Shown one piece after another: positions 31,122 through 62,655 of a stretch of 64,000 bases of DNA. Under the pieces are notes generated by a model, which was not told the origin of the DNA, searched no databases, and was given only the letters and a program-made list of their open reading frames with translations. Within the stretch, counting starts at the first letter, position 1; each line of letters opens with the position of its first letter. The position numbers were made by a program, and so were the translations under genes. This DNA comes from Escherichia coli (GTDB lineage Bacteria > Pseudomonadota > Gammaproteobacteria > Enterobacterales > Enterobacteriaceae), in NCBI RefSeq assembly GCF_003334355.1, contig NZ_QOWP01000019.1. One strand, given 5' to 3'.

Positions 31122-34002
31122 TCTTTTCACTCATCAGGGGCATTGTTTGCTGCAACGCGCTGACGTTCTCCCACACTTTCCAGCCTTCAGGGTGTACATA
31201 TTCGGCTTTCCCGTTCTGGCTGCCGGAAATCTGCGACAGAATAGCCATGCCTTGCGGCTCGACCACCGCCTGATGGAAGAAATCAGCAAGTTTTTGCGGC
31301 GTCAGCAGTTTTATCTGGGCCACGATTTTATCACGCGAATCGAAGCGCATATTGCCGCGATCGAAATCTTTACTTAACTTCGATGCTTCTTCGCCGAGCG
31401 TTTGCGGTGCCTGCAGCATCTGGGTAATTACCGCCTGCTGGATTTGCGCAAACTCATCTGGCTTCATCGCTCGCAATTTTGCCTCTGCGGTTGGGAAAAA
31501 CGCCTTGTAACGCTCCCACAAGAATGAAGGCTGTTTATCATTGCTTTGCAAAAGGAAGCCCATGCCCCACTGACGCCCCACGCTCATTGGAAACGCAAAC
31601 ACGGCATAGCCCAATTGTTCTTCGGTACGCAACTGATTGTAGAACCACGGCTGTACGATCTGCCCCAATAGAGAGCTATAGGCTGAGCTGGTGTATTCAT
31701 CGTAGCCAGTCGGTACAAATACCGCTGCCAGTGCGGAGTCGGTGCTGTTACCGGCTTTTTCAAAGATGACGGATTGTTTTTTATCGACCACTACATCTTT
31801 GTTTCGACACCACTCTGAACCATCAGCGCCCAACTGTTTTTGCACATCGCGTGCCAGCGTTGTTGCCTGGGCCTCGGTCATGTTGCCGATAACCATAAAC
31901 TCTGGTCGAGCCCCTGATTTTAAGGCGTCGCGATAGGCCAGCACCTCTTTCAACGTAATGGAGGGCAAAATTTTACGCCGTTCATCTCGCGAGAAGTACG
32001 GCACTTGCGAGAGCATCTGCGCGGGCATAATCGCCTGCTCAAACGCTTTACCCTTTTCTGCGGAATCCATCATCTGGTTATACCAGGACTTCGCCTGCTC
32101 AAGCTGATCTTCCGTGGCGGTATAGCTAAAGTAGCCTTCCAGCAATGCCTGGAACAGCTGCGGCAGACGCTGGGTGTAACCATTAGCATTAACCATAAGG
32201 CCGTTGTTAGCGTTGGTGGAAAAACTTATGCCACCAACCGACGCCTGGTTGCTTAACTGATCAAGCGCCAGCCCTGCGAGATAATCATTGAGCGCAAACA
32301 TCACCTGATTGCGGGCGCTGTCCATGGCTTTCGGATTACGCAAAATCAGGCTGACATCGGCTTTTGGCTCGCTGGCAAAATAACGGCTTGGCGCATACAC
32401 TACGCGCAGATTCGACTCATCAACAATCAGCTCTGGATGGTCATATTTCTTGTCTGACTTAATCAGCGAGAAATCGTCAGGAATATAAGGGTTAAGCTCT
32501 GGCAAAGAGAGCGCAATGTCGGCGGCTTTTTTCTGCCAGTCGGCGAAAGTTTGTGCGCTGATTTTATCGACCTGATACGGCGCATCGACAAAGTAAGCCG
32601 TTTTGTTGTGCGGCTCTTTCGGGCTGATATACCAGATACGCGCATTCTGCGGCGTCATCATCGCCAGACGTTCCTTTACTGCTTTAGCATCGTACCGATC
32701 GGCAATATTGACTGCATCCAGCGTATGCTCAACAGGAACGCGAATCATGGTATCTGCCAGCCATTCGACGTAATCCATATCACGGGTGATTGACGGATAA
32801 CGGAAGTCGATATCCAGCACATTCGCCAGTTCATCGAAGTATTGTTTATCGATCCCTTTTTCACGTAACAAATTGAGGTAGCTAAAAATAGCCGCCACAA
32901 CCTGATCGCGATTCGCCAGACCTTTATCGGTTAAAGACGCAGAGATCGCTAATACGCCGCTGTTGCCGTTGACGATAGGATCGGAGTTGGCGCTAATGCC
33001 CTCAACTAATCCCTGCTTTTGCAGCCAGTCGGAAAGTGTACCTGGGCTGCGATTACCAATCAGATAGGTAATCAATTCATCGGTTTTGCTACGGAATTTC
33101 GCCGAGTTGTTATCAATACGAAACTCTACGCGCAACACTTTACGCGGCAGCGCCGGGACGTAATGAATGATAATGCCCTTTTGCGCGTCGGTGACTACCG
33201 GCACGGTGATTTCCGGTTTTTTGCTCTCTTTGTTCGGCACGCGACCAAAGGTGTCCGCCGCCATTTTTGCCAACTCCGGCAGCGGTTTATTGCTGTAAAT
33301 AACCGCCTTCATCAGATTGGCGGAATAGTACTTCTCGTGGAAATCTTTCAGCGCCTGCTGCACCGGATTACCAGGTTTGTCGCTTAAAGTTTCGAGGTTA
33401 CCACCAGAAAACTTTGAACCGGGGTGTGCCGGGTTAATGGTTTCTGCGCTGACCTGCGCCATGCGCATCCCGTCACGCGTACGCGCCATGGTTAATTCGG
33501 CATTCACTGCATTACGTTCACGTTCGGCGTATTTCTTGTCGAGCAAGGGTTCTGCAATAGCGTCCGCCAGGCGGTCTACCGCACCGGGCAAGGCGTCGTT
33601 CTCAACTTCCAGATAGAAAGCCGTGCGATACGGTGCCGTGCTGGCATTGTGACTGCCGCCGTGCATTTTGAGATATTCGGCCAGACTGTCAGCCTGCGGG
33701 TACTTTTTCGACCCCATCAGACTCATATGTTCAAGGTAATGTGCCAGCCCCTGGTACGCCTCGGGATCTTCCAGCGACCCAACGGGCACCACCAGCGCCG
33801 AGAGCGATTTAACCGCCTGCGGATCAGAAACCAGCAAGACCACCATACCGTTATCCAGACGTATAGCCTGATACTGGCGGTTATCTTTATCACTTTTACG
33901 GATGGTTTCCTGAATCGGCTGCCATCCCGTTTCTGCCTGACTTAAGGGTGCCCAAAGGGCAACAAACAACAATAATGCTTTGAACCAGGTGCTGCGGGGC
34001 AT
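31114..34002 (-). CDS. ptrA: Protease III (pitrilysin), periplasmic M16 metalloprotease
   Basis: 962-aa ORF with signal peptide and HxxEH zinc motif (HYLEH). Confidence 0.96.
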   Translation of the reverse strand: MPRSTWFKALLLFVALWAPLSQAETGWQPIQETIRKSDKDNRQYQAIRLDNGMVVLLVSDPQAVKSLSALVVPVGSLEDPEAYQGLAHYLEHMSLMGSKKYPQADSLAEYLKMHGGSHNASTAPYRTAFYLEVENDALPGAVDRLADAIAEPLLDKKYAERERNAVNAELTMARTRDGMRMAQVSAETINPAHPGSKFSGGNLETLSDKPGNPVQQALKDFHEKYYSANLMKAVIYSNKPLPELAKMAADTFGRVPNKESKKPEITVPVVTDAQKGIIIHYVPALPRKVLRVEFRIDNNSAKFRSKTDELITYLIGNRSPGTLSDWLQKQGLVEGISANSDPIVNGNSGVLAISASLTDKGLANRDQVVAAIFSYLNLLREKGIDKQYFDELANVLDIDFRYPSITRDMDYVEWLADTMIRVPVEHTLDAVNIADRYDAKAVKERLAMMTPQNARIWYISPKEPHNKTAYFVDAPYQVDKISAQTFADWQKKAADIALSLPELNPYIPDDFSLIKSDKKYDHPELIVDESNLRVVYAPSRYFASEPKADVSLILRNPKAMDSARNQVMFALNDYLAGLALDQLSNQASVGGISFSTNANNGLMVNANGYTQRLPQLFQALLEGYFSYTATEDQLEQAKSWYNQMMDSAEKGKAFEQAIMPAQMLSQVPYFSRDERRKILPSITLKEVLAYRDALKSGARPEFMVIGNMTEAQATTLARDVQKQLGADGSEWCRNKDVVVDKKQSVIFEKAGNSTDSALAAVFVPTGYDEYTSSAYSSLLGQIVQPWFYNQLRTEEQLGYAVFAFPMSVGRQWGMGFLLQSNDKQPSFLWERYKAFFPTAEAKLRAMKPDEFAQIQQAVITQMLQAPQTLGEEASKLSKDFDRGNMRFDSRDKIVAQIKLLTPQKLADFFHQAVVEPQGMAILSQISGSQNGKAEYVHPEGWKVWENVSALQQTMPLMSEKNE

Positions 34003-54019: not shown

Positions 54020-54141
54020 AGCAAACTCCAGATAAGTGCTTTTTTTATGATTACGCCACATCATAAAAAGAATAAAAAATATCGATTTATGTCGAGTCTA
54101 TGCAAAAATGATATGGATTACCGGATTGCGAGAGAGCGCTA

Positions 54142-55077
54142 ATGGCCGCCGTTAACTTACGTCATATTGAAATTTTTCATGCGGTAATGACCGCCGGAAG
54201 CCTGACTGAGGCAGCACACCTGCTACACACCTCACAGCCAACCGTCAGCCGCGAACTGGCGCGCTTTGAGAAGGTGATCGGGCTGAAATTGTTTGAGCGC
54301 GTACGTGGACGATTACATCCTACCGTGCAAGGACTGCGTCTGTTTGAAGAAGTGCAACGATCCTGGTACGGACTGGATCGCATTGTCAGCGCCGCAGAAA
54401 GTCTGCGCGAGTTTCGCCAGGGAGAACTGTCTATTGCCTGCCTGCCGGTCTTTTCGCAATCTTTTTTACCGCAGCTCCTGCAACCCTTTCTGGCACGTTA
54501 TCCCGATGTCAGCTTAAATATCGTGCCCCAGGAATCACCGCTACTTGAAGAGTGGCTCTCGGCCCAGCGTCATGATTTAGGACTCACTGAGACACTCCAT
54601 ACGCCTGCGGGAACAGAACGTACCGAATTACTCTCTTTAGATGAAGTGTGTGTGTTACCTCCGGGTCATCCGCTGGCGGTAAAAAAGGTATTAACGCCGG
54701 ATGATTTTCAGGGTGAGAACTACATCAGCCTTTCCCGTACTGACAGCTATCGCCAGTTGCTGGATCAGCTATTTACTGAACATCAGGTTAAACGACGCAT
54801 GATCGTAGAAACCCACAGCGCCGCGTCAGTCTGCGCAATGGTACGGGCGGGGGTAGGTGTTTCGGTGGTTAACCCGCTCACCGCACTGGATTATGCGGCA
54901 AGCGGTTTAGTGGTGCGGCGGTTCAGTATTGCGGTTCCGTTCACCGTCAGCCTGATCCGCCCTCTGCACCGCCCGTCATCAGCGCTGGTGCAGGCGTTTA
55001 GTGAGCATTTACAAGCTGGGTTACCGAAACTGGTCACTTCTCTTGACGCTATTCTGTCGTCAGCTACGACAGCATAA
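54142..55077 (+). CDS. lysR: LysR activator of lysA
   Basis: 311-aa ORF divergent from lysA. Confidence 0.94.
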
Positions 55078-55884: not shown

Positions 55885-57303
55885 TCAGACGCCGATATTT
55901 CTCAACTTCTCGCCTGCCATCAGTTTGCGTTCGATATGTTCCAGGGTGACATTTTTGGTTTCCGGAATGAGCCAGAAAGTGATGCCCACAAACGCAATGT
56001 TCAGCGCAGTGTAGAGCCAGAACGTACCGGCAGCGCCAATGCTGTCGAGCAGCGTCAGGAAGGTCGCGCCGATAATCATATTCGACACCCAGTTCGTGGT
56101 GGTCGAACAGGTAATACCGAAATCGCGGCATTTCAGCGGCTGAATTTCAGAGCACAGGATCCACACCACTGGCGCGGCGCTCATCGCATAACCGGCAATA
56201 CACATCATCGTCATGCCAACAGAGAGCCAGGACAAGCCACTGGAAGCCGTACCGTTATCAAACTGCATCAGGCAATAGCCCAGCACCAGAGTGCCTAACG
56301 CCATCACGCTGAAACCAATTTTCAGAGCCGGTTTACGACCTGCTTTATCTACCGTAAAGACCGCAATGAAGGTCGCGAACATAAAGGTCAGTCCCACGAC
56401 CAGAGTCGCAATCATCTGTTGTTCTGTGGTCGTAAAGCCCGCCATTTTGAAGATACGCGGCGCGTAGTACATGATGATGTTCATACCGGTAAACTGCTGC
56501 ATCGCCTGCAACAACATACCGAGAAACACAGCACGACGGACGTTACGGTTGATCTTAAACAGTGCCCAACCGCCCTGTTTTAACTTCAGGCTTTCACGAA
56601 TTTCGTTGAGTTCTTCTCGCGCTTTTTCCGACGTATCGCGCAGCATACGCAACACTTCTTCCGCCTCAATATGACGCCCCTTTTCCGCCAGCCAGCGCGG
56701 GCTATTTGGCAGGAAGACCACCAGAATAATCAGCAGGACTGCTGGTAAAGCAAGAACCCCCAACATTGCGCGCCAGTTACCGCTATAACTGAACGCTGTA
56801 TCGGATAAAAACGCCAGCACGATGCCGAGTGTGACCATCAACTGGTACATACTGATCATCTTACCGCGAACGTTTTCACTTGCCATTTCAGAAAGATACA
56901 GAGGAGCGGTGTAAGACGCGATCCCGACAGCAATGCCCAGCACCACACGAGCGGCGATTAACATCTCTACGCTGGTCGCAAAAGCGGACCCTATAGAACC
57001 GAGTACAAACAGGATGGCCCCCGCCATCAGGCTGTATTTACGCCCCAGGCGGAACGACAGCCAACCATTAAACAGCGCACCAATTGCTGCGCCGAGCATC
57101 ATGCTACTAACCACCCATTCCTGCAAACGACTGGTCAGCACAAAGTGATCGGTAATGAACGGCAACGCTCCGGCGATTACGCCGATATCAAGACCAAATA
57201 ACAATCCTGCGACCGCAGCAGCTACCGAAACAAACATATTCATACGCCGCGTATCCCGCAAAGAACGTGGCGTTAAAGCAGATTCCGTATTGATAGTAAC
57301 CAT
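55885..57303 (-). CDS. araE: Arabinose:H+ symporter AraE (MFS)
   Basis: 472-aa product from the ATG at 57303 ([15 protein letters not shown]); ORF-track start at 57432 is an extension. Confidence 0.94.
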
Positions 57304-57519
57304 TTTTTCCTGCCAGCAGAGAGTAAGACATAGTGAAAAAATACGTGAACAACTCACACAGGTGTCAGGTCGGAAACAGCATAAATATGGATTAAATTGC
57401 TGCGACATGTCGTTATGTGATGGATATTCCAATTTTCAAATTAAGTTGAATTATTGAGATTATTATTAACCACCTAATTTTACAGCAGATAAAATTCATA
57501 AAGTTCATTAATTGATAAT

Positions 57520-57555
57520 TGATATGGATTATTTCATAACCATGATATGGATTAT
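57520..57555. promoter_or_regulatory. Two 13-bp direct repeats tgatatggattat upstream of araE, candidate AraC half-sites
   Basis: Exact repeats at 57520-57532 and 57543-57555; each carries TCCATA on the araE strand. Confidence 0.5.
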
Positions 57556-57571
57556 GATGATCTACAGGTAT

Positions 57572-57596
57572 AAAAAACCCTGCCATGCGGCAGGGT
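57572..57596 (-). terminator. Rho-independent terminator downstream of kduD
   Basis: On the minus strand ccctgcc-gcat-ggcaggg hairpin followed by tttttta. Confidence 0.75.
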
Positions 57597-57617
57597 CATA
57601 AAAGTAAGAGAAATGAA

Positions 57618-58379
57618 TTAACGAGCCAGCCAACCGCCATCCACGGCAATGGTATAACCATTCACATAATCTGAAGCGCTGGAGGCAAGGAACACTACCG
57701 GCCCCATCAGGTCACTCGGCAGTCCCCAACGGCCAGCTGGAATGCGGTCGAGAATTTCCGCGCTACGTTGTTCATCTGCCCGTAGTTGTTGAGTATTGTT
57801 GGTCGCCATGTAACCCGGAGCTATCGCATTAACATTAATGTTGTGTTTAGCCCATTCGTTCGCCATCAATCGCGTCACGCCCATCACACCGCTTTTTGAT
57901 GCGGTATAAGAAGGCACACGGATCCCGCCCTGGAAGGAGAGCATTGACGCGATATTGATAATCTTGCCGCCATTGCCTTGCGCGATAAAGTGTTTCGCCG
58001 CTGCCTGAGACATGAAGAATACGCTCTTGATATTCAGGTTCATGACATCGTCCCAGTCTTTTTCGCTGAACTCGAGAGCATCTTCGCGGCGAATCAATCC
58101 GGCGTTATTCACCAGGATATCAATATGACCAAACTCCGCTACCGCGCGATCCAGCAGTGCTGGAATGCCATCAATCTTTCGCAGATCGGCGGTCAGGCTT
58201 AAAAAACGACGCCCCAGCGCCGTGACCTGCTTGATGGTTTCAGTCGGTTCAACGATGTTAATGCCAACAATGTCACAGCCCGCTTGCGCCAGCCCCAACG
58301 CCATCCCCTGGCCCAGCCCAGTATCACAACCAGTGACGACCGCAACTTTACCTTCGAGAGAAAATGCACTTAAAATCAT
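57618..58379 (-). CDS. kduD: 2-dehydro-3-deoxy-D-gluconate 5-dehydrogenase (SDR)
   Basis: 253-aa ORF recognised as KduD. Confidence 0.95.
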   Translation of the reverse strand: MILSAFSLEGKVAVVTGCDTGLGQGMALGLAQAGCDIVGINIVEPTETIKQVTALGRRFLSLTADLRKIDGIPALLDRAVAEFGHIDILVNNAGLIRREDALEFSEKDWDDVMNLNIKSVFFMSQAAAKHFIAQGNGGKIINIASMLSFQGGIRVPSYTASKSGVMGVTRLMANEWAKHNINVNAIAPGYMATNNTQQLRADEQRSAEILDRIPAGRWGLPSDLMGPVVFLASSASDYVNGYTIAVDGGWLAR

Positions 58380-62250: not shown

Positions 62251-62655
62251 TAATGTTCATTCGTTATTATTCCGCACTATCACTTCCCTCATCATATCCT
62301 AGTATTATCAGTTAGTTAAACACACAAAGAGATCTGAACATCTTATATAAGACTATTTAAGATGCATAACTTAGATTCGCAAGATATCTTCTGGTCATTC
62401 AAAAACAATTTGCGATATAGATATTCTCATACCATGAGATAGTTATCTGAACCACCCTCAACCAGGTAAGATTAAATCAGTGAAACATAATCATATTTAA
62501 TAACGAGAAATGCATTTTAAAATGTCTTAATCAGAATTATAGCAAATACAGATTAATCGCAATTTTTCCCAGCAAAATTACAAAATCATGGTGTATTGAC
62601 ATCATCAATCACCAATGAAATTATGCAATTATATACGGATAGGGAGGTTCTTAAC

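Follow-up and report, generated by a model that had tools for sequence, protein, structure and literature searches.

We analyzed a 64,000-nt stretch of Escherichia coli DNA (contig NZ_QOWP01000019.1 of assembly GCF_003334355.1; hereafter the window) and the region that lies upstream of araE within it. This gene is encoded on the minus strand at 55885..57303 (472 aa plus the stop codon; ATG at 57303-57301), as assigned from its translation and from the RefSeq annotation of identical or near-identical E. coli records. The gene located upstream of araE is kduD, whose stop codon lies at 57618-57620, and the two genes are separated by an intergenic region of 314 bp (57304-57617). A preliminary description, made from the sequence of the window alone, had presented the araE upstream region as AT-rich, and its GC-content of 32.5% agrees with this. 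The segment 57200-57700 is 100% identical to that of E. coli strain OW1E2 and was found in 5424 of 5426 complete genomes.

For the comparative analysis, araE and 1.5 kb of flanking DNA were taken from 80 species, with a core Enterobacteriaceae set of 56 sequences (genera including Escherichia, Salmonella, Citrobacter, Klebsiella, Raoultella, Kluyvera, Enterobacter, Kosakonia, Lelliottia, Leclercia, Siccibacter, Pseudescherichia, and Phytobacter). A terminator scan identified the intrinsic terminator of kduD at 57576..57597 (minus strand), whose hairpin is kept in the 56-sequence alignment and which forms the upstream limit of the araE control region. At the other end, we inferred the araE core promoter at 57331..57368 (minus strand) from two conserved hexamers (−35 CTGACA at 57368-57363 and −10 TATTTT at 57343-57338) that are kept as CTGAC and TA-N-TTT in the alignment; judging from the position of the −10 hexamer, transcription probably starts near 57331. 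An RNA element was rejected, as no significant Rfam family was found in 57000-57900. A promoter scan returned two weak promoter-like matches on the plus strand, with no excess over shuffled sequences, and none on the araE strand; an upstream or antisense promoter was also rejected, since these matches are at chance level.

The araE promoter is preceded by a canonical AraC activation module. The core of the CRP site (57416..57431, minus strand) reads TGGAA-TATCCA-TCACA, or TGTGA TGGATA TTCCA on the plus strand, and AAAtTGtAATgTCCATCACA is present in all 56 core sequences; we take it to be a CRP site from its match to the consensus and from the architecture of pBAD. The high-affinity AraC half-site I1 (CAGCAATTTAATCCATA, AGC-N7-TCCATA) lies at 57386..57402 on the minus strand and is identical to pBAD I1 at 14 of 17 positions. 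The second half-site, I2 (TGCTGTTTCCGACCTGA; 57365..57381, minus strand), was identified from its sequence and from the conservation of CCTGAC in the alignment. It starts 21 bp after I1 with TTTA in between, ends in CCTGA like pBAD I2, and its last four bases (CTGA) overlap the −35 hexamer CTGACA by 4 bp. Relative to the inferred start, the CRP site is centered at ~−92.5, I1 spans ~−71 to −55 and I2 ~−50 to −34. The spacing is the same in araE and pBAD, both from the TCACA of the CRP site to the B-box (TCCATA) of I1 (29 bp) and from this B-box to the −35 hexamer (23 bp; CTGACA in araE and CTGACG in pBAD). The pBAD regulatory sequence used for these comparisons was verified against E. coli genomes, in which all of its 296 nt were matched (100% identity). 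The CRP, I1, I2, −35, and −10 elements are all conserved across the 56 araE upstream regions, and both the AGC and the TCCATA(T) of I1 are invariant across species. Finally, the primer JW073 (CGCAGCAATTTAATCCAT), used by the Wade laboratory for AraC ChIP-qPCR at araE (PMC3738151), coincides exactly with the I1 site.

An additional TCCAT, the fourth of the region and hereafter the C-box, is located in the spacer of the CRP site (57424-57420, minus strand), in the same orientation as the I1 box and 33 bp upstream of it. This distance is exactly 33 bp in all 56 core Enterobacteriaceae sequences. Among the 17 anchorable outgroup loci, the C-box was found only in Mixta (locus L067) and a second distal box in none, so that the combination of both is restricted to the core clade. 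The C-box could merely reflect the conservation of the CRP site or could represent a further AraC contact.

Upstream of this module lies an exact 13-bp direct repeat, TGATATGGATTAT on the plus strand, whose two copies (57520-57532 and 57543-57555) are 23 bp apart from start to start. Both copies read ATAATCCATATCA on the araE strand and contain TCCATA, all of which confirms what had been described previously. We designate the distal copy D1 (57543..57555, minus strand; TCCATA core at 57551-57546) and the proximal copy D2 (57520..57532, minus strand; core at 57528-57523). The T-run of the kduD terminator ends ~13 bp ahead of D1, and the two cores are located at −248 (D1) and −225 (D2) relative to the ATG of araE. 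The 17-bp equivalents of an AraC half-site are 57546-57562 for D1 (GATCATCATAATCCATA) and 57523-57539 for D2 (TTATGAAATAATCCATA), corresponding to ~−231 to −215 and ~−208 to −192 from the inferred start. Within the window, the 10-mer TAATCCATAT is common to D1, D2, and araE I1. Between D2 and the CRP site, an AT-rich spacer (57436..57519) presents few conserved columns in the 56-sequence alignment while its length is held; this spacer presumably constitutes loop DNA. By-eye inspection of the spacer revealed no conserved match to an IHF site.

We observed that a repeat of this kind is rarely produced by composition: exact, non-overlapping direct repeats of at least 13 bp were obtained in 5 of 2000 dinucleotide-preserving shuffles of the intergenic region. 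D1 and D2 also form the only pair of same-strand TCCATA located 16-45 bp apart in the 64-kb window, and the presence of three same-strand TCCATA in 314 bp has a Poisson probability of ~6e-5 given the window's own rate. In a K-12-like genome, the proximal copy is ATAATCCATATTA, with one mismatch just 3′ of the core. The exactness of the repeat over 13 bp is therefore a local feature of E. coli, and the other genera have TCCATA(T) alone in common.

Sequences related to the 13-mer were also found elsewhere in the window, where seven matches to TGATATGGATTAT with at most two mismatches were counted relative to 1.27 expected. A third exact copy is located at 63155-63167 (minus strand), inside an ORF of 230 aa (62596-63288, plus strand); on the plus strand it reads TAT AAT CCA TAT CAG, which encodes Y-N-P-Y-Q in frame, and we treated this copy as a coincidence in AT-rich coding DNA. 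Two copies match 12 of the 13 positions: one at 32770-32782 (minus strand) in coding DNA and one at 54109-54121 (plus strand) in an intergenic region, 21 bp upstream of an ORF starting at 54142. Going by the gene order of K-12, the latter probably corresponds to the lysA-lysR control region. The hypothesis of a dispersed repeat family was rejected, with no extended similarity around the copies at 63155, 32770, and 54109, and all three were regarded as coincidental.

The distal boxes are widely conserved. Two TCCAT motifs, 23 bp apart and oriented like I1, precede the CRP site in 55 of the 56 core sequences, and the distance is 33 bp in the one exception. An anchor-free count led to a similar picture: besides the T-run of the terminator, TCCATA is the sole 6-mer present between −300 and −135 in 56/56 sequences, and it is found at least twice in this region in 50 of them. 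The pairwise identity is ~0.99 for the cores and ~0.2-0.4 for their flanks. Across 55 aligned species, the TCCATAT of D1 is invariant. The TCCATA of D2 is conserved as well, with an A-rich tract (gAAaAATCCATA) ahead of it and the AGC box absent. Overall, the conservation of D1 and D2 consists of TCCATA(T), an A at position 2 of the half-site (strong in D1), and an A/T-rich 5′ side. The D1 and D2 cores are under strong purifying selection across genera. The distal boxes are kept in species in which the upstream neighbor is not kduD (e.g., Salmonella arizonae, Kluyvera, and Pseudescherichia), which indicates that the boxes belong to araE and travel with it. In Franconibacter, Cedecea, Buttiauxella, and Mangrovibacter, a single TCCAT was identified at −150 to −154 from I1, a distance equivalent to that of D1. 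We did not find the distal TCCAT box in Erwinia, Mixta, Rosenbergiella, and others.

The distance separating D2 from I1 is also constrained. Two length classes were observed, of 137-139 bp (44 sequences) and 127-129 bp (11 sequences), with no intermediate values. The step between these two length classes is 8-10 bp (8-9 bp for the Klebsiella class), as compared with a helical turn of 10.5 bp. With 10.5 bp per turn, the two classes correspond to 13.0-13.2 and 12.1-12.3 turns, respectively. A value of 11.1 bp per turn, which Lee and Schleif reportedly gave in 1989 for the ara loop in vivo, yields 12.3-12.5 and 11.4-11.6 turns. The phasing of D2 and I1 thus depends on the helical repeat that is assumed: it holds at 10.5 bp per turn and fails at 11.1. 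The confinement of this length to two classes about a helical turn apart, in spite of the lack of sequence conservation of the spacer, would agree with looping.

The preliminary description had proposed that the two repeats are AraC half-sites. This proposal agrees with the presence of the B-box, the direct repetition of the boxes, their I1 orientation, and the conservation of their cores, and it fails in so far as the repeats are not the equivalents of araI1 and araI2. We relied on direct comparisons of 17-mers combined with a phylogenetic control and dropped the use of a position weight matrix, for which there were too few verified independent AraC sites. In the alignment to pBAD I1 that had been suggested, the B-box is perfect and identity reaches 12/17 for D1 and 9/17 for D2, a value also obtained for araO2 (9/17; D1 and araO2 are identical at 10 of 17 positions). 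In contrast, the AGC of the A-box is absent: the position of (T)AGC, 7 bp upstream of the B-box, is occupied by GATC in D1 and TTAT in D2, and AGC was found in neither the D1 nor the D2 consensus of 55 species, whereas it is invariant in araE I1. The suggested comparison with araFGH was less informative. A canonical half-site is present there (CAGCAGATTAATCCATA, 15/17 identical to araE I1; positions 2860-2880 of record L094), but it lies on the strand opposite to araF, ~250 bp before the ATG, and the architecture is too different to help. This half-site is presumably one of the known AraC sites of araFGH.

The missing A-box is a property that D1 and D2 have in common with araO2, the looping operator located at about −280 in the araC-araBAD region. 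As a positive control, we aligned the araC-araB intergenic region from eight genera. The araO2 motif (AACCA)aTTGTCCATAT was conserved, with the AGC box absent and the flanks unconserved, and the distance from O2 to I1 was 211-212 bp across the eight genera (200 bp in Shimwellia). Thus, araO2 resembles D1 and D2 in its perfect TCCATA(T) B-box, its lack of an AGC A-box, its I1 orientation, the CRP site located in between, and the unconserved DNA leading to I1, whose length takes discrete values (211-212 or 200 bp at araO2, 137-139 or 127-129 bp at araE) that may reflect helical turns. The geometry of araO2 is found at araE as well, where over 100 bp separate the boxes from I1 and this interval includes the CRP site. 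The two systems also differ. araO2 is a single box 211 bp from I1 and lies in the leader of the divergent gene araC, where looping is proven, whereas D1 and D2 are two boxes 23 bp apart, at 160 and 137 bp from I1, in a terminator-to-promoter spacer where binding and repression are inferred. A saturation study showed that I1 and O2 have the pattern xAxxxxxxxxxTCCATA in common and that mutations in the TCCATA of O2 raise the basal activity of PBAD (PMC11983282). D1 has the A at position 2 of the half-site in E. coli as well as in 80% or more of the species; for D2, this position is a T in E. coli and an A in just over half of the species.

These results suggest that D1 and D2 fit an araO2-like auxiliary role rather than an I1-I2 role. 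We consider it probable that they serve AraC as auxiliary half-sites of low affinity, ~160 (D1) and 137 bp (D2) upstream of I1, and the best reading of our analyses is that a second AraC promoter thereby possesses an auxiliary site comparable to araO2. According to this model, one DNA-binding domain of an AraC dimer would grip I1 when arabinose is lacking, and its other domain would grip D2 (or D1). The bridge between I1 and D2 or D1 would loop out the AT-rich spacer together with the CRP site, and I2 and the −35 region would stay unoccupied in the looped state, so that araE would be off. With arabinose, the dimer would let go of the distal box and take I1-I2, and araE would be activated together with CRP. 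What we observed are the sequences of the boxes, their conservation, orientation, and spacing, and their likeness to araO2; AraC as the binding protein, the formation of the loop, and the lowering of basal expression are predictions drawn from this comparison. Several features of the locus weigh against looping, namely the 23-bp period, the lack of an A-box, the presence of two boxes versus a single O2, and the short loop of 137 bp.

We know of no report of AraC repressing araE in the absence of arabinose. Full-text searches of the accessible literature returned no paper describing distal AraC sites at araE; such boxes may have been noted earlier, in the footprinting work of 1983, the ChIP work of 2014, or regulon databases. 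As stated in the legend of Fig. 4 of the ChIP-qPCR study cited above, AraC was detected at araE in cells grown without arabinose (PMC3738151). The resolution of this method makes D1/D2 and I1 inseparable. It has been reported that AraC tolerates varied arrangements of its half-sites (PMC2241862).

If araE is indeed controlled in this manner, a loop would keep the transporter gene off as well. The ara system is where DNA looping was first discovered; yet, to our knowledge, AraC looping has been described only for the araC-araBAD region, and araE is regarded as a simple CRP-AraC-RNA polymerase promoter. It is this transporter that determines the all-or-none induction behavior of every pBAD expression system. 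A loop at araE would therefore matter for the basal levels of AraE, for induction thresholds, and for the way in which araE promoter fragments are designed in strain engineering, and it would provide a natural setting for the study of a short loop (~137 bp) that can choose between two distal partners.

Alternatively, D1 and D2 together could form an operator similar to araO1, in which both boxes are occupied in cis by a single AraC dimer, whether arabinose is present or not and independently of any loop to I1. Such an operator could serve as a local reservoir of AraC, as a roadblock against read-through from kduD, or as the partner of a second AraC-bound site. The distance between D1 and D2 is the most rigid feature of the region (23 bp in 55/56 sequences and one turn more, 33 bp, in the exception), as expected if one complex touches both boxes. 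araO1 itself is a pair of direct half-sites with a 21-bp period, starting at 140 and 161 in the verified pBAD sequence; like D1 and D2, they precede the CRP site and are oriented like I1. The tolerance of AraC for altered half-site spacings (PMC2241862) would accommodate a different period. However, the period is 23 bp and not 21, and both boxes lack the A-box, which should make their affinity in cis low; araO1 presents partial A-boxes and degenerate B-boxes (TCTATA and TCCACA), whereas the B-boxes of D1 and D2 are perfect. Their positions differ as well: araO1 is found at 53-74 bp from I1, where it overlaps the araC promoter, and D1 and D2 at 137-160 bp, with no divergent promoter. Two further observations argue against this alternative. 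A site that acts only locally would have no need of the constraint seen on the length of the D2-I1 spacer. In the more distant genera, the one distal box that is present keeps a fixed distance from I1, which suggests that an interaction between distal and proximal sites is the older function. Overall, we regard an araO1-like operator as rather unlikely.

It is also conceivable, but quite unlikely in our view, that the locus forms a paired looping architecture in which D1 and D2 (23 bp apart) face the C-box and I1 (33 bp apart) through two apo-AraC dimers or through alternative loops. One of the AraC contacts would then compete directly with CRP. The difference between 33 and 23 bp is 10 bp, which would place the pair D1-C-box (127 bp) in the same helical phase as the pair D2-I1 (137 bp). 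Moreover, the C-box and the second distal box are found together in 56/56 core sequences and are both absent from Franconibacter, Cedecea, Buttiauxella, and Mangrovibacter.

The TCCATAT boxes might instead be bound by a protein other than AraC, for instance through cross-repression by XylR or by an uncharacterized factor, in which case their likeness to the B-box would be coincidental. XylR-dependent repression of arabinose genes was reportedly described by Koirala et al. in 2016. The conservation of merely 6-7 bp per box, without the AGC box that is specific to AraC, and a period of 23 bp, which is outside the norm for AraC, would agree with such a binder. This is nevertheless improbable, as the conserved sequence coincides in full with the AraC B-box, has the trailing T of araE I1 and araO2 (TCCATAT), and is found in the orientation of I1 beside a promoter for which AraC is the only known specific regulator. 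We know of no other E. coli regulator with a TCCATA core, and none was found in our searches; XylR sites are not known to contain TCCATA.

Read strictly, the preliminary description would make the repeats an I1/I2-type pair from which an AraC dimer activates the araE promoter. Direct repeats containing TCCATA upstream of araE could indeed be read this way, and D1 and D2 resemble araI1-araI2 and araE I1-I2 in their TCCATA core, direct repetition, and orientation. In contrast, the AGC box, the 21-bp period, the overlap with the −35, and the 29-bp distance to the TCACA of the CRP site that characterize I1-I2 are all absent from D1 and D2: their period is 23 bp in 55/56 sequences and 33 bp in one, and D2 ends ~155 bp upstream of CTGACA (57368-57363). 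A canonical CRP-I1-I2-(−35) module with pBAD-identical spacing is already present at 57363-57431, and the activating pair (57386-57402 and 57365-57381) is ~140 bp closer to araE. The repeats lie ~150-190 bp upstream of the −35 hexamer, the DNA that follows D2 shows no conservation, and no promoter-like element comes after the repeats on the araE strand. At ~−215/−192 from the inferred start, D1 and D2 are too distant for direct activation of araE. The published AraC site, as far as activation is concerned, maps elsewhere, as the ChIP-qPCR primer for araE targets I1. This reading is contradicted by the position of the repeats and is extremely improbable. Finally, a chance event or a neutral local duplication without function is hardly credible, despite the low GC-content of the region, the restriction of the 13-bp identity to some E. 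coli, and the further copies in coding DNA, since it is contradicted by the scarcity of such repeats among shuffled sequences and by the conservation of cores and spacing across more than 15 genera with randomized flanks.

Several genomes present natural variants of this locus or of its relatives. In Enterobacter, Lelliottia, and Leclercia (e.g., loci L050, L054, and L055), the motif AAATGAC-N5/6-ATCACAG is found between D2 and the CRP site; this clade-specific motif resembles a second pair of CRP half-sites and E. coli does not possess it. In the K-12-like strain AML003_ev02, thiP and thiB were found at 69500-71500, where araC-araBAD is expected in K-12 coordinates; this record is shifted by several kb there and possibly carries an engineered ara deletion. 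In E. coli strain E03, the similarity to the window ends at 57422, inside the CRP site and beside an IS1 transposase gene: D1, D2, and kduD are present, and araE and its core promoter are missing at the breakpoint. Lastly, E. coli strain 613 carries a natural 7-bp deletion just 3′ of D2 (~57510-57520), which arose by slippage between TATCAAT repeats. The core TCCATATCA is intact in this strain, and D1 and D2 are shifted by 7 bp toward I1 (from 137 to 130 bp), which puts them roughly two-thirds of a turn out of phase.
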